DNA of 48,549 nucleotides, from contig JAOPTX010000075.1 in assembly GCA_051532055.1 (NCBI GenBank), positions 1 through 48,549 on the forward strand, read 5' to 3'. Source of the stretch: Fibrobacterales bacterium (GTDB taxonomy: Bacteria > Fibrobacterota > Fibrobacteria > Fibrobacterales > JAOPTW01). Under the pieces are notes generated by a model. The model saw only the letters and a program-made list of their open reading frames with translations. It made no database searches and was not told the DNA's origin. A program made the position numbers and the translations under genes. Below are positions 4,075 to 48,549 of the stretch, in pieces. How positions within the stretch are numbered: the stretch's first letter is position 1; every line of letters starts with the position of its first letter.

Positions 4075-4902
4075 ATGATTAATATATTTGAATACACGAA
4101 TTACCGACAGTATTTAAAAGATTTTTATCTTGCTAAAAAGGGTCGCCAAAAATCGTTCTCTTTTCGGGTTTTTGCAGACCAGGTCGGGTTCAGTTCAAAG
4201 AGCTTTATTCAAGATGTAATCAGCGGAAAACGAAACCTTTCGAAAGAGTCTACTTTTAAACTGATAGAGTATTTAAAGTATGACGTAAAGAAGAGTGCAT
4301 ACTTTCAAGACCTCGTTGAGTTCGATCAGGCAAAGACCACTGATCAGAAAGAGTTCTTTCTTTCACGAATAGTCGCAAGTAATAGTTCAACCCAGTTTAA
4401 AAAAGTTTTGAAAGAGCAATTTGAGTTCTATTCACGGTGGTATAATAATACCGTACGGGAGTTGATAACGATTCCTAAGTATGGAAACAATTTAAAACTG
4501 TTAGGGAAAGTACTAAACCCTCCACAAACTGAAGCGACGGTTAAAAAATCGGTTAAGGTTATGTTGGATATTGGTTTGTTAAAAAAGACGGGTAAAGGGT
4601 ATGCTGTTTCGGCACCAACAATTACTACCGGTGACGAGGTGACGTCAACACTCGTCAGTCTGTTCCATAGTGAAAACTTTAAGCTTGCTGAACGGTCACT
4701 GAACGAAACTGATTCACGGGATAGGGATCTTTCGTGTGTGGTAATGCGTCTTTCGAAAAAAGATTTTTTAGAAGTTAAAGAAGAGATACAAGGATTTAGG
4801 AAAAAAGTATTACAGATGGAATCATCACCGGAAGATACTGATAAGGTGTATCATTTTAACATGCAGGTTTTTCCTACCACACGGTCATTGGGAGCAAAAT
4901 GA
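4075..4902 (+). CDS. TIGR02147-family protein (N-terminal HTH, C-terminal DUF4423-like)
   Basis: Family signature IFEYTNYRQYLKDFY...FSFRVFA...GKRNLS, FYSRWY...VRELI and C-terminal VYHFNMQVFP. 275 aa. Confidence 0.9.
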   Translation: MINIFEYTNYRQYLKDFYLAKKGRQKSFSFRVFADQVGFSSKSFIQDVISGKRNLSKESTFKLIEYLKYDVKKSAYFQDLVEFDQAKTTDQKEFFLSRIVASNSSTQFKKVLKEQFEFYSRWYNNTVRELITIPKYGNNLKLLGKVLNPPQTEATVKKSVKVMLDIGLLKKTGKGYAVSAPTITTGDEVTSTLVSLFHSENFKLAERSLNETDSRDRDLSCVVMRLSKKDFLEVKEEIQGFRKKVLQMESSPEDTDKVYHFNMQVFPTTRSLGAK

Positions 4903-6158
4903 AAAGGTCAATAGTTGGGGTACTTATTTGTCCATGGATACTTGTTGGATTAATGTTTGGATGCTCCAAGCAGTCAACAGAGGTTTCCGGATCAGAGATT
5001 GGAAATCCAACCATAGCCGGAACACTGCTTGACTCTTCGGATATGCCGATAGTAGATGCGCAAATTGCGTTATATAAAGCGGGTGGTTCAGAACCACTGC
5101 TTCTTCAACAGTCCGATGCAGAGGGCTTGTTTGAAGTTGAAAATATTGATAGCGGTAGCTACCACGTTGAAGTTTTGAGCAAAGACAGTCTTCTCATTGG
5201 GTATTATAGTGATGTCGCGTATGATTCACTTCTGGGACTTTTACAGTTACAGCGTCCGGCACGAATACAGGGGACGGTATTTATTGATGATATCTCCAGT
5301 GTATCAATTGCAGGAACCCACTACAAGGCAACGCTCAATAGTGATGGTATGTATGCATTTAATCTACTCCCCATAGGAATGTTCGATATTGTTGCGACAC
5401 ACCTTAATGAAACGGGCGTTGCGGTAGATACCGTAATTGAAACCGTAGATTTGCAGCCCGATGAAGATCTGGACCTGGTTCCCGGAAGCTCCTCTGAATA
5501 TATCGAAAGTTCTGCAAGCTCAAGCTCAGAACCGGTTGTCGATGAACTTGTGTTATTGGATGATTTCGCAGACAGAGATCATTACCATGCGCAAGGTTCT
5601 ATTCTCGAAGAGGGTTACTGGTATATGTTATATGATAGCGCCGATGGTGGCGCCTCTACAGTCGTTCCTTTTGAAAGTTATGGTGATGCGTTCACCAACG
5701 CGACCCAAGAGTATGATGGCGCCGGAAACGGCTATAGTTTAAAAGTCCTTTTTGATCTGGATGAATCTTTTGGAGATCCTTATGCAGGTGTGATAGTCAG
5801 TTTGGGTAGTCAGTCTGCTGATTTGAGTGAGATGGATTCATTGGTGTTTGATTTCAAAGGTGATGGTGATATCACCGTCGAAATTGAAAGAGAGGTATGG
5901 GACGAATTTAACAATAGTGAACTCATGCGTGCCTCCTGGTACTTTGCCAATAATGTTGATTGGGTAAAGCGTTCCCTTAAAGTATCCGACCTGTTCATCG
6001 ACCCGAACTATCACCCCGAAGGACTCGGCATAGCCGATCTTTTACGAAACACCTATCGGATAACGTTTAAAGCAACTTCTGGAACCTGGCTTCAAATAGG
6101 GGATGTTCACTTGGGTGGCGTGACCAAAGAGGATATTGTTCCTTATGTACCACTATAA
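4899..6158 (+). CDS. Lipoprotein with carboxypeptidase-regulatory-like domains and a C-terminal CBM11/CIA30-like domain
   Basis: Lipobox MFGC and GSEIGNPTIAGTL..SDAEGLF..GSYHV. C-terminal LLDDFAD..GYWY..DGG..PYAG..DLS..FDFKG. ATGA overlap with the upstream TIGR02147 gene. Confidence 0.75.
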   Translation: MKRSIVGVLICPWILVGLMFGCSKQSTEVSGSEIGNPTIAGTLLDSSDMPIVDAQIALYKAGGSEPLLLQQSDAEGLFEVENIDSGSYHVEVLSKDSLLIGYYSDVAYDSLLGLLQLQRPARIQGTVFIDDISSVSIAGTHYKATLNSDGMYAFNLLPIGMFDIVATHLNETGVAVDTVIETVDLQPDEDLDLVPGSSSEYIESSASSSSEPVVDELVLLDDFADRDHYHAQGSILEEGYWYMLYDSADGGASTVVPFESYGDAFTNATQEYDGAGNGYSLKVLFDLDESFGDPYAGVIVSLGSQSADLSEMDSLVFDFKGDGDITVEIEREVWDEFNNSELMRASWYFANNVDWVKRSLKVSDLFIDPNYHPEGLGIADLLRNTYRITFKATSGTWLQIGDVHLGGVTKEDIVPYVPL

Positions 6159-8204: not shown

Positions 8205-9422
8205 GTGAAAATTATGAAATTATATAGTATGTTATTTCTGATGTGTTGTATTGGGTGTGACATGAAAGAAAGTGTTACAGTTCCTATGGGGGAATCTTCA
8301 GTTTCTAGGGGTATGGGATTTGAGAGTAGTAATGATACCGTTCTATCAAATGAAATGAGTTCATCAGTGTATGATGAACGTTCTGTGATTCATAAGAGTA
8401 GTGAAGGTACAGCTATTGGATTAAGTAGCTCATCAATAGTAACCAGTAGTAATGTCCAGAAAACGATCTCCAGTAATGACTTGAACTCAAGTAGTATCAT
8501 TTTAAGTAGTAGTTATTTAAGTGAAGGAGCTTCTTCAAGCACTGAACTATTTTCAAGTATGAACGACCACTACTCTTCGAATAATAGTATTGCGTCAAGT
8601 AGCATTGCCCTAAGTAGTTTGAGCAGTTTAGAAGAAGATTCAACAGTCTATGGAGCTATTACATTAATGAATTGGAATATACATTATCAGAATAGTAATA
8701 CTAAAGGAGTTGCACGCATTATTGATGAAGTGAATCCGGATATTGTAGGGCTCTGTGAATTCACCGCTTCACCTGATGCATTAATAAGTGACCTTTCTGA
8801 GGTGAGCGACAGAAATTATACATTGCAACCAGGCCGCCCTTGGTTCAAAGGATATGGTACTGCTATTATTTATGATGATAATACGTGGGAGGCCCTTGAA
8901 GGAGGAGTTGAATCAATATTTTGCGAGGGAACCCTGGGAGGAAATCGTGCGGCTAATTAGGTGGTCTTAAAAAATCGAGAGCACGGTAACACTATGATTA
9001 CCGGTGGTATACATTTGTCTTATTGTGCTGGAAAAGAGGGATGTGATGCGACTCATGAATGTGAGCTTGGGGTCGCGTATACTCATTTTGAAGAAATGAA
9101 AGCAAAATATAATGCACCTGTGGTTTGGATGGGAGATTTAAATCGCTGGATAGGTACAACTATTTTTGATAATATCTTTACAGGTACAATTGGTACGCGA
9201 AATAGTTTCATCGTTGAAGATTTGTCTCAAGCAGTTGGGGGGACAATGTACAATGGTGAAAGCTGGCAATATCCTATTGATCATATATTAGGTGAACCTG
9301 GCTATTTTGAACGAATGAGTGGTGGAAGAACTCAGCATGGCGTAAAAGGGCAGTGGCTAGAAAATGCGGATCACTTTCCGGTATATAGCGAATTAAGATG
9401 GGAAGTAGAAGAATACAAATAA
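8205..9422 (+). pseudogene. EEP-family (endonuclease/exonuclease/phosphatase) lipoprotein split by one in-frame TAG
   Basis: ORFs 8205..8960 and 8961..9422 are contiguous and in frame (RAAN*VVLK). Lipobox CIGC, Ser-rich linker, and motifs NWNI, DIVGLCE, HL, GDLN, IDHI and ADHFPV. Confidence 0.85.
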
Positions 9423-42467: not shown

Positions 42468-42485
42468 GTACACTAAAAGGTGTAC
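42468..42485. promoter_or_regulatory. Operator-like palindrome GTACAC-TAAAAG-GTGTAC
   Basis: Perfect 6-6-6 dyad, 18/18 identical to 47194-47211, 92 nt upstream of the next gene. Confidence 0.75.
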
Positions 42486-42577
42486 ACTTATATATGTCTT
42501 GTGAGGGTTGTCATGAGTTGCGCAGCTGTAAAAGTTATTTTTTGGTTTGCGAAATAATTTAAGCAAAGTGAGGAATA

Positions 42578-44101
42578 ATGCGAAGCTCAAAGAATAGTGT
42601 ATGGGGTTGTATACTCTTTTTGCAGGGGGCGATCTTTGGTGCACAGTATACCATTGGTCCTGCTGAGATGTACGCAACACCCAATGCGCTTTATACCGCA
42701 AATATTGTGTCTACCGGTGATACTATCTCAATTGAAGCTGGTGAATATGTGGGAGTCGATGCACTTGCCCATTGGTCATCTGATAGTTTGCTCATTAGGG
42801 GCGTCAATGGCCGCCCTCATCTTAAAGTCTCAGGTGAATATATAATGGGGAAAGGGATTTGGGTTGTCTCAGGTGACTATATTACTATAGAAGATATTGA
42901 GTTTTCGGGGGCAAAAGTTCCTGATATGAACGGGGCAGGCATTCGACTCGAAGGGGCGAATGATACCATTAGAGGGTGTTCCTTTCATGACAATGAAAAT
43001 GGCATTTTGACCATTGGAGCTAGTGAGGGAGACCTCGTTATTGAATTTACCGAATTTGGGTATAGTGGTCATGGAAATGGATATACACATAATGTGTATG
43101 TGGGAAACTATAAAAAATTAATCTTCCAGAATAATTATTCACACCATGCCCACGTGGGTCATAATCTTAAATCTCGTGCTGATTCAAATCTTGTTCTCTA
43201 TAATCGCATCAGTGATGATGCCGATGGCTTTTCGAGCCGATTGGTTGATTTTCCTAATGGTGGATATAGCTTGCTGCTGGGGAATATTTTGATGCAGGGA
43301 GTGAATGCGCCGAATTACAATCTCGTAGGATATGGCCTAGAAGGACTTATAAATAAAGAACCCCATGAACTCTATCTCATTCACAATACGTTCGTTAATG
43401 AGAATCCTATAGCTGGAACCTTCGTGCACACAAAAAATGGGACTCAAAAAATAGTGTTGAATAACAATATTTTTACAGGTGTGGGAACAATTTTAAATGG
43501 TGAAGGTTATAGTGGAGAGGGAAATGTTATTGAACCTTCAATTGAAGACGTTGGGTTTGTGAACGCATCACAATTTGATTACCGGTTACTAGAGACCTCT
43601 CCAGTCATTGATGCTGGTACTGTACTCGAAGAATCACTCATTCCTCGTTTTGAATATGTGCATAAGGCCAATGCAACAATCAGGGTCACCCAAGGAGTTG
43701 TTGATATTGGGGCATATGAATATCTGAGTGAAAATAGTGATAGGGATGATGTGCAGGTGTCTAAAGGCAGCAGTAGTGAAGCTCTAGAGGGAGTGTCTCA
43801 TGAACAGCTTTATTTAAGTTCGAGCGAGCACGAATTCTCTCCAAAAAGTATTGAGCAAATGAGTAGTTCAATTGCCTTAGTTGCCTCTTTAGAACGAGAT
43901 GAAAATCGTAAAAAAGCTGTGTTATTGCCGTTTATTAATGGGGGGGATGGGCTTGTGGTGCGAGTGCCAGAAGGAAGTAAGAAATATACTGTATACTCTG
44001 TGAGGGGTGATGTTGTACATGAAGGATTTGTTGGCGGTTCTCGTAATATTACTATTGGAGCTCGTACGGTCTCCGAGATAGTATTTGTTCGGTTTCAGTG
44101 A
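42578..44101 (+). CDS. Secreted right-handed beta-helix (pectin-lyase-fold) protein
   Basis: GDTISIEAGEY, FSGAKVPDMNGAGIR, FHDNENGIL, THNVYVG, GHNLKSRA and DYRL..SPVIDAG..DIGAYE (choice-of-anchor Q-like end). VYSVRGDVV tail. Confidence 0.78.
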   Translation: MRSSKNSVWGCILFLQGAIFGAQYTIGPAEMYATPNALYTANIVSTGDTISIEAGEYVGVDALAHWSSDSLLIRGVNGRPHLKVSGEYIMGKGIWVVSGDYITIEDIEFSGAKVPDMNGAGIRLEGANDTIRGCSFHDNENGILTIGASEGDLVIEFTEFGYSGHGNGYTHNVYVGNYKKLIFQNNYSHHAHVGHNLKSRADSNLVLYNRISDDADGFSSRLVDFPNGGYSLLLGNILMQGVNAPNYNLVGYGLEGLINKEPHELYLIHNTFVNENPIAGTFVHTKNGTQKIVLNNNIFTGVGTILNGEGYSGEGNVIEPSIEDVGFVNASQFDYRLLETSPVIDAGTVLEESLIPRFEYVHKANATIRVTQGVVDIGAYEYLSENSDRDDVQVSKGSSSEALEGVSHEQLYLSSSEHEFSPKSIEQMSSSIALVASLERDENRKKAVLLPFINGGDGLVVRVPEGSKKYTVYSVRGDVVHEGFVGGSRNITIGARTVSEIVFVRFQ

Positions 44102-44131
44102 GGTGGAGTGGGGGACTGCTCTCTGGCGTCC

Positions 44132-44149
44132 GTACACTAAAATAAGTAC
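44132..44149. promoter_or_regulatory. Operator-like site GTACAC-TAAAAT-AAGTAC
   Basis: 15/18 match to 42468-42485, 88 nt upstream of the TIGR02147 start. TATAAT at 44166-44171. Confidence 0.65.
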
Positions 44150-44237
44150 GAAAAACGCAATTAATTATAATGTTCTTTGAATATGATACTGAAAATTCTT
44201 ACATTGATAGGTACAGTGTCACAGAAAGATAGGTTCA

Positions 44238-45089
44238 ATGTCCCTTAAAATTAAGGTTAGAGACTATGTTGACTATGTTGTTTTCTTAAATGACTGGTTT
44301 GTAGCTAAAAAAGAGCAGTCAGCTGCGTTCTCTTTTAGGTTGTTTGCTGATGCTGCGCAATTTAAATCAAAATCTCATATGGCCGAAATTATAAAGGGTA
44401 AGAAACAACTTTCGCGGAAGTCAATACTCAATGTTGCCCATGCCATGAAGCTCAATGATATAGATATTGAATATTTCAGTCATTTGGTTCATTTTCAGAC
44501 GGCTAAATCCGTGACTGAAAAAAATATCTATTGGAGCAAGATCTGTGAGATGCAGCTACCGTCTTTGGCAAAGAGGAAAACGTTTAGAGAATATTCATTT
44601 TTAAGTAACTGGTATAATATTCCTATTAGGGAGATTCTAACGGTTGTTGATTTTAACAATGATTTTCGGTTTTTAGGTAAACAAGTCTGGCCCCCTATAT
44701 CTCAAAAACAAGCTAAAGAAGCTGTAGAGCTGTTAGTAGAACTGGATATGGTTGAAAAAAGTGGACCACTGTATATACAAAAGAGTTTTGATATACTCGT
44801 TGATCCTGTTGTGAAAAAATTAGCTTACCATAATTATCAAAAAGAGATCATTGGTCTCGGCGCTGACGCTATAGATGACTTAACAGATTTGAGACGCTAT
44901 ACTCAAACAATCAGTTATGGATCAAACCCTATTCTTAATAATAAAATTAATGTCTTGATTGATTCGTTTGTTGGTGATCTCTATCAATTGGTTCAGCAGT
45001 ATCCAGACGTTGATGAGGTAAAACAATTGAATTTACAGGTTTTCTCTTTAAGTAAACAAAATTTGACAGGAAAAAAGAAAGAACGATGA
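44238..45089 (+). CDS. TIGR02147-family protein (second copy)
   Basis: VRDYVDYVVFLNDWF..FSFRLFA..GKKQLS, FLSNWYNIPIREIL, PPIS..AKEAV.LL and QLNLQVF. Confidence 0.9.
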   Translation: MSLKIKVRDYVDYVVFLNDWFVAKKEQSAAFSFRLFADAAQFKSKSHMAEIIKGKKQLSRKSILNVAHAMKLNDIDIEYFSHLVHFQTAKSVTEKNIYWSKICEMQLPSLAKRKTFREYSFLSNWYNIPIREILTVVDFNNDFRFLGKQVWPPISQKQAKEAVELLVELDMVEKSGPLYIQKSFDILVDPVVKKLAYHNYQKEIIGLGADAIDDLTDLRRYTQTISYGSNPILNNKINVLIDSFVGDLYQLVQQYPDVDEVKQLNLQVFSLSKQNLTGKKKER

Positions 45090-46966
45090 TCTATATACTC
45101 ATTTCGCTGATAACACTCTTCATTGCCTGCTCCACCGATACGGTGCTCCCCTCTAATCAATTTACTGGTATTGTTGTGGTTGGAGATAACCCGGTGGCCT
45201 CAAAAGTTGCCCTTTATGAACGGGATGCATCAGACTCTGCTCTCTATATTATCGAAACGGATTCTACTGGGATCTTTCAGTTGGGCGATGTACCTGATGG
45301 AGAATACCGCATGGTTGTTCGGCAGCAGTGGTTTTTTGGTGAAATTATCGATTCCATCAAAAAAGATGCTTCGGATCGCTTTCTCACGGTATCCCTTTCA
45401 CCTTTTAAAATATTGCCCCTGAATGTTTCAGGGAGAGTCACGAATATTTCATGGTTTGGTGATTCGTTGCCAGCCTTTAAAGAAGATAGAAGTGTACTCT
45501 ATATCGATGACCGAATAGTACACTGTACGTTTCATTTGAACTCGGGTGATAGTGCCTATACCATTCAGGATGTTGGTGATAGTGTTATCGTTTCGGCAGG
45601 AAGTGATTCAGTTGTGTACCTTGATACTTTTGATTTTGTGGTACCGAGTGAGAATGCAAATGTATCAAGTGATCAGGAGAAATTATTGTCGAGTAGCTCT
45701 CAAGTATCTTCCTCCATTGGAGAGGTGAGTGTCATCTCATCATCATCATCATTAGTATCAGTATCAGTTATAGCCCCTGTTCAGTCATCACAAGATAAAG
45801 GGTTTGTTAGTTCATCTATTGTGAGTTGGGATTCAACCAGTATAATCGTACCTCATTCGAGTTCAAGTAGAGCGAAGGATGATGAAATCGAATTGCCAGA
45901 AGCTCAGATTGACGCAGGGTACCCTTATGGACTTGGCATACGTAAAGACGATACACAGGGTAACTTAGAAGGGTATTGGTTGTGGAAAAAGGGAACCATT
46001 GATGCGCCACCCTTTGTTGCTGAAAAAAATGTTGTGTATCGATTTTATGAAGATCAAGTATTGATTCAGAGAAAAGATAGCAATGATATGCATAAAGAGT
46101 TGTGGCACTGGAATGGTATTGATACCTTACATCTTGCTGAGTTTGATTCGATTCCCTATGGGGGGAATGTTCACTTTTGGGGTGATAAAATATTCTATGA
46201 AGGTACTCTGCCCGACACTTCAGAGATCAGTGTACTCTATCCCTATGACTTATCAGAAAACTTTATGGGGCAGCCTCTTACCGCACTGCCCAATCAAGTT
46301 GTCACTGATAGTATACTGGTCGCTGTGGATGAATTTGATGTCATTCAATATCGTTATGTAAATAAAACAGATCAGTCCTATAGTGAGGTGGGGACTGTCT
46401 TTAATCTACAAGCGTATGGAAGTCAGTTTGCCTATAGTTATTTTTTTGGTAGCCTGTATACGGTTAAATTATGGGACTCCTATGGAGGTGCATATATAGT
46501 CGATGAGGGTATGCTAGCGAATGATAGTGGCACTTCTCCAGTCCTTTCATTGTTTAAAGGACTTCTTACCTGGGAGATGCCTCTTTCAGTTGACCGTTCA
46601 GAAATTCGGATGTTGGTCGATGGCGTTGTAGAGACAATTGCTGAGAGTGATCGGTTACAGCATTTGATTACCGCTGATACTGAAGTACTCTGGGTTGATA
46701 AGAAGGGGACCTTTGTACGATATTTTGAGAATAGTGTTGATACCCTCTTTCAGGAACCCTTGAATAATGGTTCGAACACCCCAAGGTATATCAAAATGGT
46801 GGCACTCATTAATGGTATTATATTATACGAAGTAATTGAGAGCGCAGGTTTATCTGAAATATATGTGTACGAGATGGGTTCAAGCACTGAGGGTCATAAG
46901 ATGTTAGATGGAGGATTGATTCCCTCTCAGGGGACTCCATACAGTTATCGACCCAATCTTAATTGA
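45086..46966 (+). CDS. Lipoprotein with a carboxypeptidase-regulatory-like N-terminal domain and a beta-rich C-terminal region
   Basis: Lipobox FIAC, ETDSTGIFQLGDVPDGEYRM and a Ser-rich linker. ATGA overlap with TIGR02147. Confidence 0.72.
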   Translation: MIYILISLITLFIACSTDTVLPSNQFTGIVVVGDNPVASKVALYERDASDSALYIIETDSTGIFQLGDVPDGEYRMVVRQQWFFGEIIDSIKKDASDRFLTVSLSPFKILPLNVSGRVTNISWFGDSLPAFKEDRSVLYIDDRIVHCTFHLNSGDSAYTIQDVGDSVIVSAGSDSVVYLDTFDFVVPSENANVSSDQEKLLSSSSQVSSSIGEVSVISSSSSLVSVSVIAPVQSSQDKGFVSSSIVSWDSTSIIVPHSSSSRAKDDEIELPEAQIDAGYPYGLGIRKDDTQGNLEGYWLWKKGTIDAPPFVAEKNVVYRFYEDQVLIQRKDSNDMHKELWHWNGIDTLHLAEFDSIPYGGNVHFWGDKIFYEGTLPDTSEISVLYPYDLSENFMGQPLTALPNQVVTDSILVAVDEFDVIQYRYVNKTDQSYSEVGTVFNLQAYGSQFAYSYFFGSLYTVKLWDSYGGAYIVDEGMLANDSGTSPVLSLFKGLLTWEMPLSVDRSEIRMLVDGVVETIAESDRLQHLITADTEVLWVDKKGTFVRYFENSVDTLFQEPLNNGSNTPRYIKMVALINGIILYEVIESAGLSEIYVYEMGSSTEGHKMLDGGLIPSQGTPYSYRPNLN

Positions 46967-47171
46967 TTCTTAACTCCCTGTTGTTGTTATCCTTCGGTAT
47001 TACCTGTTGCGGTAGCTGAATGAGTATACTGCTGATTGGTAGCTTTTAAGGTCATACCTTCTCCATTACAATAGTTTCAAGGTTCATTGTGTTATTTCGT
47101 ACTGTGATGTATCAAAAGTAAAATGAATGTGTCTGATGTTCAGTAAGATGTTTACAGCTTTATCAATAATC

Positions 47172-47240
47172 GTACACAACTAAGAGTACGGAAGTACACT
47201 AAAAGGTGTACGGTAAGTACGGTTTTAACTGAGCGTACAC
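47172..47240. promoter_or_regulatory. Tandem GTAC-N10-GTAC operator array
   Basis: GTACAC-AACTAA-GAGTAC (47172-47189) and GTACAC-TAAAAG-GTGTAC (47194-47211), with extra GTAC cores at 47217 and 47235. Confidence 0.75.
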
Positions 47241-47330
47241 TGGAGTAGGTTTTTCAGGATTCTTAACTTTGTAGTTGAATACAGAGATGTGCCCACAACA
47301 GTCATCTTTGGAAAACTAACCTGAGGATTT

Positions 47331-48549
47331 ATGACGCTCCAATTATTTTGTTCCATTATCACCCTTGCTCTATTACTTCCAAGTACACTCTTTGCTGCTC
47401 AAGGAATACTGTCAGGGGCGGGGACAGAGTTATCCCCGTATCTCATTGAGGATTTCGCAGACTTAAATGTCGTTAAGAATGATCTGCAGGCGTGGTATCG
47501 TTTAGAGCGGTCGATTGATGCTACACCAACACCCCAAGGATCGAGTTCAGGATTTTTACCGATTGGTAGTTCGAATGCGCCATTTGTGGGTAATTTTAAT
47601 GGTGGAGGGCACCAGATTCATGGAATCACGATTAATAGAGGGGGGAACAGTAGTGTTGGACTCTTTGGGTTTGTGGGTGATGATGGAATAATTGATAATC
47701 TCAACATAACCGGAAAAGTTTACGGGTATCAATACGTTGGATGTGTCGTCGGCTATAATAAGGGGATAGTGCGTAATGTTGCTGCTCAGTGTGATGTATA
47801 TGGTAGACAGGGATATACTGGAGGTGTTGTAGGATATAATACTGGTACTATTGAGATGGTCAGTGTGTCAGGAATAGTCTCAGGGGGGAGCTCCTATATC
47901 GGAGGTGTGTGTGGCTATTCAACAGGCGCTATTTCGAAAACAGTCTTTTCGGGTAAGGTACTTTCAACGCGCTCCTATCGGGGAGGCATTGTAGGATATT
48001 TGAACAATGGTTCGATAGATGAATCGTTGAGTTATGGCTATGTTACTAGGACATCATATAGTGGTGGTTTAGTAGGAAGGTCTATATCAGGAGTGATTAC
48101 AAATAGTTATTGGAATACTGCATTATCAAATCAAAGCGTTTCTGCTGGATCTAATGGTACTGACTATCGTGCACTCTCTATTGATGAAATGAAAAATCAG
48201 AGTTCATTTACTCAATGGGACTTTGCCAATACATGGGTGATGGGAAGTCGTCGAGGGGTACCGGTATTACAAAATGTTACTGATGCTCCTATTGGAATAT
48301 CAGATCGTACTTCACTGTTTGTCGATACTTTGGCTATGGGGGCTTATCTTTTAAATGATACGACGAATATGGGAGGAGTACCGACAGTATATACATTCCT
48401 ACGAATTGAAGGGCGGGGAGATTCTCTCGATCACTGGTATATTCCAGGAGAGGATAGGACTACAGATACCCTGTGGGGAATGCCTACACTTGTGCGGTCT
48501 CCAAATATTGAAATAGAAATTTCAAACTATACTGATTTAAAAAAAATTG
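47331..48549 (+). CDS. GLUG-motif secreted/surface protein (partial, runs off the window)
   Basis: Manual translation: MTLQLFCSIITLALLLPSTLFAAQGILSGAGTELSPYLIED...FLPIG...FVGNFNGGGHQI...VGLFG...YVGCVVGYN...TGGVVGYN...SGGLVG...SYWN...WDFANTW. GAGG RBS. Not in the ORF track. Confidence 0.85.
   Translation, partial: MTLQLFCSIITLALLLPSTLFAAQGILSGAGTELSPYLIEDFADLNVVKNDLQAWYRLERSIDATPTPQGSSSGFLPIGSSNAPFVGNFNGGGHQIHGITINRGGNSSVGLFGFVGDDGIIDNLNITGKVYGYQYVGCVVGYNKGIVRNVAAQCDVYGRQGYTGGVVGYNTGTIEMVSVSGIVSGGSSYIGGVCGYSTGAISKTVFSGKVLSTRSYRGGIVGYLNNGSIDESLSYGYVTRTSYSGGLVGRSISGVITNSYWNTALSNQSVSAGSNGTDYRALSIDEMKNQSSFTQWDFANTWVMGSRRGVPVLQNVTDAPIGISDRTSLFVDTLAMGAYLLNDTTNMGGVPTVYTFLRIEGRGDSLDHWYIPGEDRTTDTLWGMPTLVRSPNIEIEISNYTDLKKI

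Follow-up and report, generated by a model that had tools for sequence, protein, structure and literature searches.

A 48,549-nucleotide stretch of DNA from a Fibrobacterales bacterium (contig JAOPTX010000075.1 of assembly GCA_051532055.1; henceforth 'the window') raises the question of which protein reads an 18-bp dyad, GTAC-N10-GTAC, that recurs around a gene of the TIGR02147 family (44238..45089), and to what effect. The window is contig C75 of the source genome (G000), and a sister genome (G001) was the sole same-genus genome compared with it. We consider it likely, with a probability of roughly 70%, that a dimer of the TIGR02147 protein binds the dyad, in the longer form GTACAC-N6-GTGTAC, through its XRE-type helices and activates the weak sigma70-type promoters of genes for secreted proteins together with its own.

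The window contains exactly four copies of GTAC-N10-GTAC, at 42468, 44132, 47172 and 47194, with the sequences given in an initial annotation of this DNA, whereas shuffled versions of the window contained 0.34 on average and none of 100 reached four. As that annotation had also claimed, all four are intergenic, the nearest copies lie 92, 88 and 119 nt before the next plus-strand start, and dyads 3 and 4 form a tandem pair 22 bp apart. The motif is better written with 6-bp arms as GTACAC-N6-GTGTAC, a form that is perfect in dyad 1 (42468..42485) and dyad 4 (47194..47211), both of which read GTACAC-TAAAAG-GTGTAC; dyad 2 (44132..44149), upstream of the TIGR02147 gene, reads GTACAC-TAAAAT-AAGTAC, and dyad 3 (47172..47189), the upstream member of the tandem pair, reads GTACAC-AACTAA-GAGTAC (no strand is assigned to any of the four). 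Beyond the dyads there is an additional GTAC at 47217 and a plus-strand half-site GTACAC at 47235..47240, which is GAACAC in the sister genome. Altogether eight GTACAC half-sites occur in 983 intergenic bases here, compared to 0.42 per kb across all intergenic DNA. The locus is 81-84% identical between the two genomes with equal gene order on both sides, its three spacers are 66%, 70% and 55% identical (the last with a large deletion), and all four dyads are kept: dyads 1 and 4 are unchanged, and dyads 2 and 3 carry one change each, that of dyad 3 being in its 6-bp spacer. The comparison of the two sequences thus supports a conserved operator-like dyad. Across the whole source genome the bare GTAC-N10-GTAC pattern is not enriched (62 found, 59.4 expected), and therefore the signal resides in the cluster and in the longer arms; nor does the frequency of GTAC (observed/expected 0.93) indicate restriction-site avoidance. 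The Fibrobacter LexA box, which we take to have a 4-bp spacer, does not match the dyad.

Repeats of this kind could also be the ends of a mobile cassette, produced by recombination or insertion, since identical direct 18-mers at 42468 and 47194 lie 4.7 kb apart and flank three genes, or RNA hairpins, since some of the dyads follow a stop codon at 8-31 nt and can fold with their flanks at about -8 kcal/mol. However, the identity stops at the 18-mer, no recombinase was recognised by reading among the open reading frames (ORFs) of the window, and gene order in the sister genome is the same on both sides. Other sites lie more than 200 nt from a stop codon and on other contigs, no run of T follows, and neither explanation accounts for the fixed promoter spacing described below; we regard both as largely refuted and scarcely credible.

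The dyads stand at a nearly fixed distance from predicted promoters. Each of the six promoter regions with a dyad contains a TAnnnT hexamer that begins 51-53 nt past the dyad, and a -35-like hexamer lies 17 nt before this -10, which places the dyad centres at -71.5 to -73.5 relative to the predicted starts. The summed promoter score of 31.8 was reached by none of 1000 random-upstream sets and by none of 1000 sets with jittered anchors, and in the four counterparts from the sister genome the same promoter position ranked first of 79 in every case. Within the window the predicted promoters, all on the plus strand, lie at 42513..42541 (-35 ATGAGT, 42513-42518; -10 TATTTT, 42536-42541; dyad 1 centred at about -71.5), at 44177..44205 before the TIGR02147 operon (-35 TTGAAT, 44177-44182; -10 TACATT, 44200-44205; dyad 2 at -71.5) and at 47241..47269 before a gene encoding a GLUG-motif protein (-35 TGGAGT, 47241-47246; -10 TAACTT, 47264-47269; dyad 4 at -73.5 and dyad 3 at about -95.5). 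In the sister genome a 2-bp insertion shifts the first offset from 51 to 53, the second promoter has an identical -10 with TTGGAT as -35, and the third has TGGAGT and TAAATT. Four related dyads near the three closest TIGR02147 paralogues of the sister genome (49-58% identical), which had been chosen before the spacing came to light, show TAnnnT at offset 52 in three cases and TACATA at 53 in the fourth. TAnnnT appears to act as the -10 in the source genome, because 11 of 49 paralogues have it exactly 12 nt upstream of the start codon, compared to 0-4 at each of the other offsets from 7 to 29. By the same count many TIGR02147 genes look leaderless, as do 24 of the 25 members of an orthologue group from other families (loci L004-L029). 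By eye, no sigma28- or sigma54-type element is shared downstream of the six dyads (no formal sigma28 matrix was run), whereas the sigma70-like pair fits all six regions; the source genome has 19 Sigma70_r2 matches. Class I sites of CRP lie at -61.5, -71.5, -81.5 and -91.5 in the available parts of two sources (10.1101/2023.10.26.564124; PMC2859248), and the position found here, reckoned from predicted -10 elements, likewise falls at whole helical turns upstream of a sigma70-type promoter. The dimer is therefore most likely a class I activator, since its site lies seven turns upstream of weak sigma70-type promoters.

The candidate reader is the 283-amino acid (aa) product of 44238..45089 on the plus strand. 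Its TIGR02147 label in the initial annotation was borne out by a score of 185.7 bits (cut-off 50) over model positions 3-271 of 272, and PF14394 (DUF4423) scores 51.2 bits (cut-off 30); the Pfam and NCBIfam searches return these two families only and no CRP/FNR family, and the dyad differs from TGTGA-N6-TCACA. A monomer model from a 61-row alignment (predicted local distance difference test score, pLDDT, 88.6) comprises an XRE-type helix-turn-helix (HTH), an ArsR-like winged helix and, at the C-terminus, a dimer region of helix and strand, with SKSHMAEIIKG as the putative recognition helix. Residues ~9-96 align to HigA, DdrO, P22 c2 and the 434 repressor (Z 6.3-8.7, root-mean-square deviation 2.5-3.1), which identifies an XRE/Cro-type N-terminal HTH by structure, whereas the sequence matches are weak (E 0.039-0.9), the best in the PDB being the controller protein C.BclI (E 0.039); C.AhdI was found in the structure search. 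Residues ~106-186 resemble ArsR-type winged helices (Z ~7). Foldseek against the PDB gave no match at E 0.001, and its top row was Kfla_6221 (PDB 4g6q; E 0.11, probability 0.97, template-modelling score 0.32-0.47). The homodimer model scored 0.76 compared to 0.00 for the best of three controls, at a mark that 20 of 30 solved pairs and one of 23 single chains reach, and the runs, all with pLDDT of at least 82, shared at least 92% of their contacts. The predicted interface comprises residues 128-283, which leaves the XRE domains free. Overall, the models support a dimeric HTH protein of the TIGR02147 family as the likely reader of the dyad.

Since the XRE-type HTH weakly resembles C.BclI and C.AhdI, we considered whether the dyad-bound protein is a repressor, or works in both directions in the manner of restriction-modification controllers, with the upstream dyad activating and half-sites at the -35 repressing. 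The available part of one report describes C.PvuII as both activating and repressing (PMC2175313). In the window the half-site at 47235 directly abuts the predicted -35 of the GLUG gene, a half-site (ATACAC) stands at the matching offset at a distal site on contig C26 and at its counterpart in the sister genome, and one orthologue group, with the helix pattern SSG.YLD, has a single box at the -35 position. However, the main dyads are clear of the promoters, a fixed position far upstream would be needless for pure repression, the -35 elements are weak, and dyads 1 and 2 have no proximal half-site. We therefore consider repression or dual action quite unlikely and activation by the TIGR02147 dimer the better account of the promoter arrangement.

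Within the TIGR02147 family, paralogues whose recognition helices differ appear to differ in their boxes as well. The family has 50 members over the cut-off in the source genome and at least 49 in the sister genome, and the N10 dyad is found at the promoter of one paralogue only, that at 44238..45089 (1/49 in the source and 1/48 in the sister genome). Many of the other paralogue promoters of the source genome carry a repeated hexamer of their own (GTNNNC or GCNNNC), visibly kept in the sister orthologues (at least 37 pairs of upstream regions were aligned), and many family members of this genome thus seem to possess a box variant of their own. A repeat score of paralogue upstream regions showed a modest excess (p 0.0002-0.011 over four settings; 47 regions compared to 500), and no strong motif is common to the upstream regions of all paralogues. 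Outside the genus, we compiled 90 loci, namely the best match from each of 28 genomes of other families, 60 further loci among the matches listed and two metagenome loci, and clustered them at 55% identity; five groups (78 loci) were scored, and one identical pair and ten singletons were omitted. Each of the five groups has its own upstream motif, present in 25/25, 22/22, 16/18, 9/11 and 2/2 members, and matches of one group's motif in another group were zero, except for GTGTAAA(A/T) in 5 of 11 members of group 4. With the -10 taken as the commonest choice among several TAnnnT, the motif centres lie at -61.5 in 22 of 25 members of one group (the other three at -60.5), at -61.5 in seven of the eight scorable members of group 4 and at -72.5 in 2/2, and those of group 2 lie mostly at -88 to -91. 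The GTTC.C-N5-GTTC motif of group 2, which is the SSG.YLD group, occurs in the source and sister genomes only at a paralogue with that helix, and a GGAC-type box occurs in the source genome only at a DAS-helix paralogue. Similarly, GTACAC lies upstream of 4 of 9 paralogues whose helix begins S[KR]S[HYF] but 1 of 40 others in the source genome, and of 5 of 12 compared to 0 of 36 in the sister genome. Among distant families, where 27 of 28 loci were used (one lacked a usable frame), another group of helices is accompanied by a box of its own in 7 of 9 loci compared to 0 of 18, with less uniform spacing, GTACAC lies upstream of none of the 27, and GTACWC-N6-GWGTAC had no match in four genomes of other families. 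Across families, then, the upstream motif follows the recognition helix as far as sequence comparison reaches, and from these links we infer specific DNA binding by the homodimer.

Several observations stand beside this comparison. A distant paralogue of the source genome, C47:91832, has GTTAAC-TAAAAG-GTTAAC at -72.5 of a leaderless promoter, unchanged in the sister genome, and its spacer is the 6-bp spacer of dyads 1 and 4. In the sister genome, L033 7189-13311 contains a GTTCGC-N5-GAGAAC dyad that has its -10 at offset 52 and precedes a gene for a 300-aa protein and a LysM-bearing 1624-aa gene, and this region adjoins an insertion-sequence-like ORF pair. Close homologues with DNA beyond the sister genome were absent from the genome contigs and the 296 genomes of the phylum, and the metagenome contigs searched gave two 30% matches only. 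As proteins, P0002, P0003 and P0005 are 53-68% identical to the 44238..45089 product; P0003 (65%) is labelled Reichenbachiella sp. by its source, which may reflect transfer between phyla or a mis-binned contig.

The spacing extends beyond this dyad, because in all intergenic DNA of the source genome the degenerate shape G(C/T)NNNC-N5/6-GNNN(A/G)C shows a peak of -10 elements at offset 52 (43/640, base 2.8%, p 2.6e-7, discovery sites included), and dyads with GCTCAC, GTTCAC and GCTTAC arms and an N5 spacer also show the offset-52 spacing. Such a genome-wide peak could reflect a global regulator from outside the family that reads the degenerate shape and has TIGR02147 genes among its targets, and in line with this the proximity of phased sites to paralogues is modest (18/98 within 3 kb compared to 57/542 unphased, p 0.024; not significant at 0.5 or 8 kb). 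In contrast, mirror-matched arms occur in 49 of 98 phased and 155 of 542 unphased sites (p 4e-5), as expected for several homodimers of differing specificity, and the motifs differ by orthologue group and follow the helix across families. The class of CRP-like TGTGA-N6-TCACA sites is separate and without such a peak (GTGA-N6-TCAC, 31 found compared to 4.4 expected). We thus find a single global reader very unlikely. Other over-represented upstream motifs of the source genome are GCTC-N9-GAGC (21 compared to 1.7), a sigma54-like TGGC...TTGC, TGTAA...TTACA and TACGC repeats with an 11-bp period.

A weight matrix built from eight dyads, four from each of the two genomes, was used to scan the source genome, whose gene set consists of crude longest-ORF calls. 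The top seven places score 22-26 bits, the next 18.7, and all seven are intergenic although intergenic DNA makes up 11% of the genome; four of them served to train the matrix, and these lie no more than 2.6 kb from the TIGR02147 gene. The other three lie 100 nt before an 801-aa gene (C26:7118), 222 nt before a 490-aa lipoprotein-like gene (C90:17654) and 253 nt before a 289-aa gene (C58:33713), and the products of all three have, by eye, a signal-like N-terminal stretch and no match in a Pfam search. In the sister genome the C26 site persists, its arms identical and its spacer altered. Three further matches to a looser pattern were found in the sister genome, two seemingly within genes and one intergenic without the promoter spacing (by eye). 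Of the local regulon proposed in the initial annotation, the clustering is thus upheld by four of seven strong sites, but the strict locality is not, because three equally strong sites sit on other contigs.

A number of points weigh against our interpretation. Eight other paralogues of the source genome share the S[KR]S[HYF] helix start, three of them with GTACAC upstream, and C90:17654 has a paralogue of this kind at a distance of 14 kb; the dyads, above all the distal ones, could therefore be read by these paralogues. The paralogue at 44238..45089 is carried by the source and sister genomes only, and the targets of C90:17654 and C58:33713 are absent or deleted in the sister genome, so that, of the three distal sites, the C26 site alone can be compared there. 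The promoter matrix used E. coli frequencies, the offset tolerance of ±1 nt was fixed after looking, and one of three comparison patterns also peaked, at offset 57 (22/353, p 6e-5), a second peaking weakly at 27. The motifs of the outside and distant-family sets were defined by eye on the sequences in which they were then counted, and related sequences are non-independent, so that their p-values are overstated. Blind tests were much weaker: local sharing placed 9 of 48 paralogues above all 30 nulls (overall p 0.09), some of these nine reflecting a terminator or a duplication, best-pair scores gave p 0.01 in the source and 0.18 in the sister genome with helical phase not significant in either, and generic dyad patterns upstream of paralogues were unenriched (p 0.14-0.3). 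For this reason private phased boxes are not established for every paralogue.

The first of these points has its strongest form in the possibility that the dyad is read by a different paralogue of similar helix, such as C90:3144 or C47:1095, or by several together, which would make the 44238 gene a target and not the regulon's only master. Besides the half-sites upstream of three such paralogues and the contig shared by one of them with a distal dyad, 49 symmetric phased related dyads are spread across the genome, 11 of them within 3 kb of a paralogue. Yet the full N6 dyad stands at the promoter of the 44238 paralogue alone in both genomes, the majority of the strong sites cluster around its gene, and its closest paralogues in the sister genome carry variants of their own. 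We accordingly judge a reader other than the 44238..45089 protein unlikely.

The genes that flank the TIGR02147 gene are the likely targets. The plus-strand gene at 42578..44101 encodes a 507-aa protein with a signal-like N-terminal stretch, for which the beta-helix label of the initial annotation could not be confirmed: there was no Pfam or PDB sequence match, a choice-of-anchor Q match was weak and below cut-off (NCBIfam NF041518, E 3.5e-4), and a single-sequence model (pLDDT 38) was unusable and too poor for a fold search. The GLUG label of the plus-strand gene at 47331..48549, whose product has a signal-like start and which runs off the contig end, was on the other hand verified (PF07581, 36.5 bits, cut-off 20.5). 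Between them, the plus-strand gene at 45086..46966 overlaps the regulator stop by 4 nt and encodes a 626-aa lipoprotein with a lipobox-like LFIAC and an N-terminal fn3_3-like domain, without the G-x-E-x-G-N-P-like tag found in a few other partners. A close downstream partner gene accompanies 37 of the 50 paralogues, and 28 of these partners have a lipobox-like match. The window itself contains a second TIGR02147 gene (4075-4902) with an overlapping lipoprotein gene (4899-6158) that bears a GSEIGNP tag, and GTGAAC occurs twice upstream of it with no GTAC-N10-GTAC dyad. Elsewhere, the one-frame ORFs 8205-8960 and 8961-9422 are split by a single TAG (8958-8960) with GTG directly after it, presumably one nuclease/phosphatase-type lipoprotein gene with a premature stop. 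From 729 to 48549 most long ORFs begin with signal-like stretches, many with serine-rich linkers and short basic C-terminal tails, and they include glycoside-hydrolase (GH16, confirmed) and protease (M6) genes.

Taken together, these results suggest a mechanism in which the 44238-45089 protein dimerises via its C-terminal region and sets its two XRE-type HTH domains on the half-sites of the dyad. From seven helical turns upstream of a weak sigma70-type promoter, the bound dimer would act by class I activation and recruit RNA polymerase, presumably through the C-terminal domain of the alpha subunit (alphaCTD). Its own operon with the coupled lipoprotein would be switched on in a positive feedback. 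The same activation would extend to the flanking genes for secreted proteins and probably to as many as three distal ones, and, by analogy with the circuits of controller proteins (PMC2175313), the GLUG promoter may be tuned or limited by the tandem pair together with the 47235 half-site. The natural candidate for an input or output of the circuit is the lipoprotein encoded in the same operon. The dimeric, autoregulating factor that the initial annotation had proposed for the flanking secreted proteins is thus favoured in its dyad, its dimeric HTH reader, its autoregulation and its secreted targets, but not in its strict locality. The constant class I position before sigma70-like promoters, and the place of this dyad as one variant among the boxes of a whole family, go beyond that annotation.

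The family is large, with a match at E 1e-30 or better in 225 of 296 Fibrobacterota genomes and 5268 cluster representatives at E 0.001. TIGR02147 is named in no paper of the literature searched (which did not extend to subscription journals and supplements), DUF4423 occurs there once, in a proteomics table, and the Fibrobacter regulator literature searched, as far as its available parts go, has nothing on the TIGR02147 family (including PMC3079729 and PMC6851124). The accessible part of the Fibrobacter succinogenes genome paper leaves the transcriptional control of cellulases unanswered and notes few recognisable regulators nearby (PMC3079729). With an operator defined, an activator position fixed and motifs linked to helices, the family becomes testable at once and its regulons predictable for one paralogue after another. 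A broader idea, doubtful but worth stating, is that TIGR02147-lipoprotein cassettes may be undescribed surface-coupled signalling units, in which each of dozens of paralogues per genome would read its own operator through a variable helix, activate its own cassette and a few secreted-protein genes, and be switched by the co-translated lipoprotein, a piece of it or a ligand. If this were true, these cassettes would be the main missing control layer for secreted and polysaccharide-degrading proteins in Fibrobacterota, and the family a natural library of orthogonal activator-operator pairs.

How, then, does this system compare with those already known? The 44238..45089 protein is a full-length member of TIGR02147 (Fsuc_second)/DUF4423 (PF14394) above both cut-offs, and whereas the literature searched describes neither a function nor a site for this family, a site, a position and a helix link are proposed here. 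As with class I CRP (lac at -61.5 and malT at about -70.5 in the parts of the sources available), a homodimer would use a dyad at -61.5, -71.5 or -91.5 before a weak sigma70-type promoter. Unlike CRP, the site is GTACAC-N6-GTGTAC rather than TGTGA-N6-TCACA, the protein has an XRE HTH and a winged helix with no cyclic-nucleotide domain found, the alphaCTD contact is putative, and in place of one global factor there are many paralogues with apparently private boxes. To ArsR regulators such as Kfla_6221 (PDB 4g6q) there is a weak structural likeness only, over residues ~106-186, and these have no counterpart of the N-terminal XRE domain, the part whose helix tracks the DNA motif. Like the controllers C.BclI, C.AhdI and C.PvuII, the protein has an XRE-type HTH, putative autogenous activation via upstream dyads and tandem operators; unlike these controllers of ~70-80 aa, it has 283 aa with two extra domains and a main operator that lies far upstream instead of adjoining the -35. 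Membership among the restriction-modification controllers was rejected on this length and on the co-transcribed gene, which encodes a lipoprotein and not an endonuclease. In its mode of action the proposed system resembles class I activation by CRP, and in its HTH the controller proteins, but it belongs to neither family.

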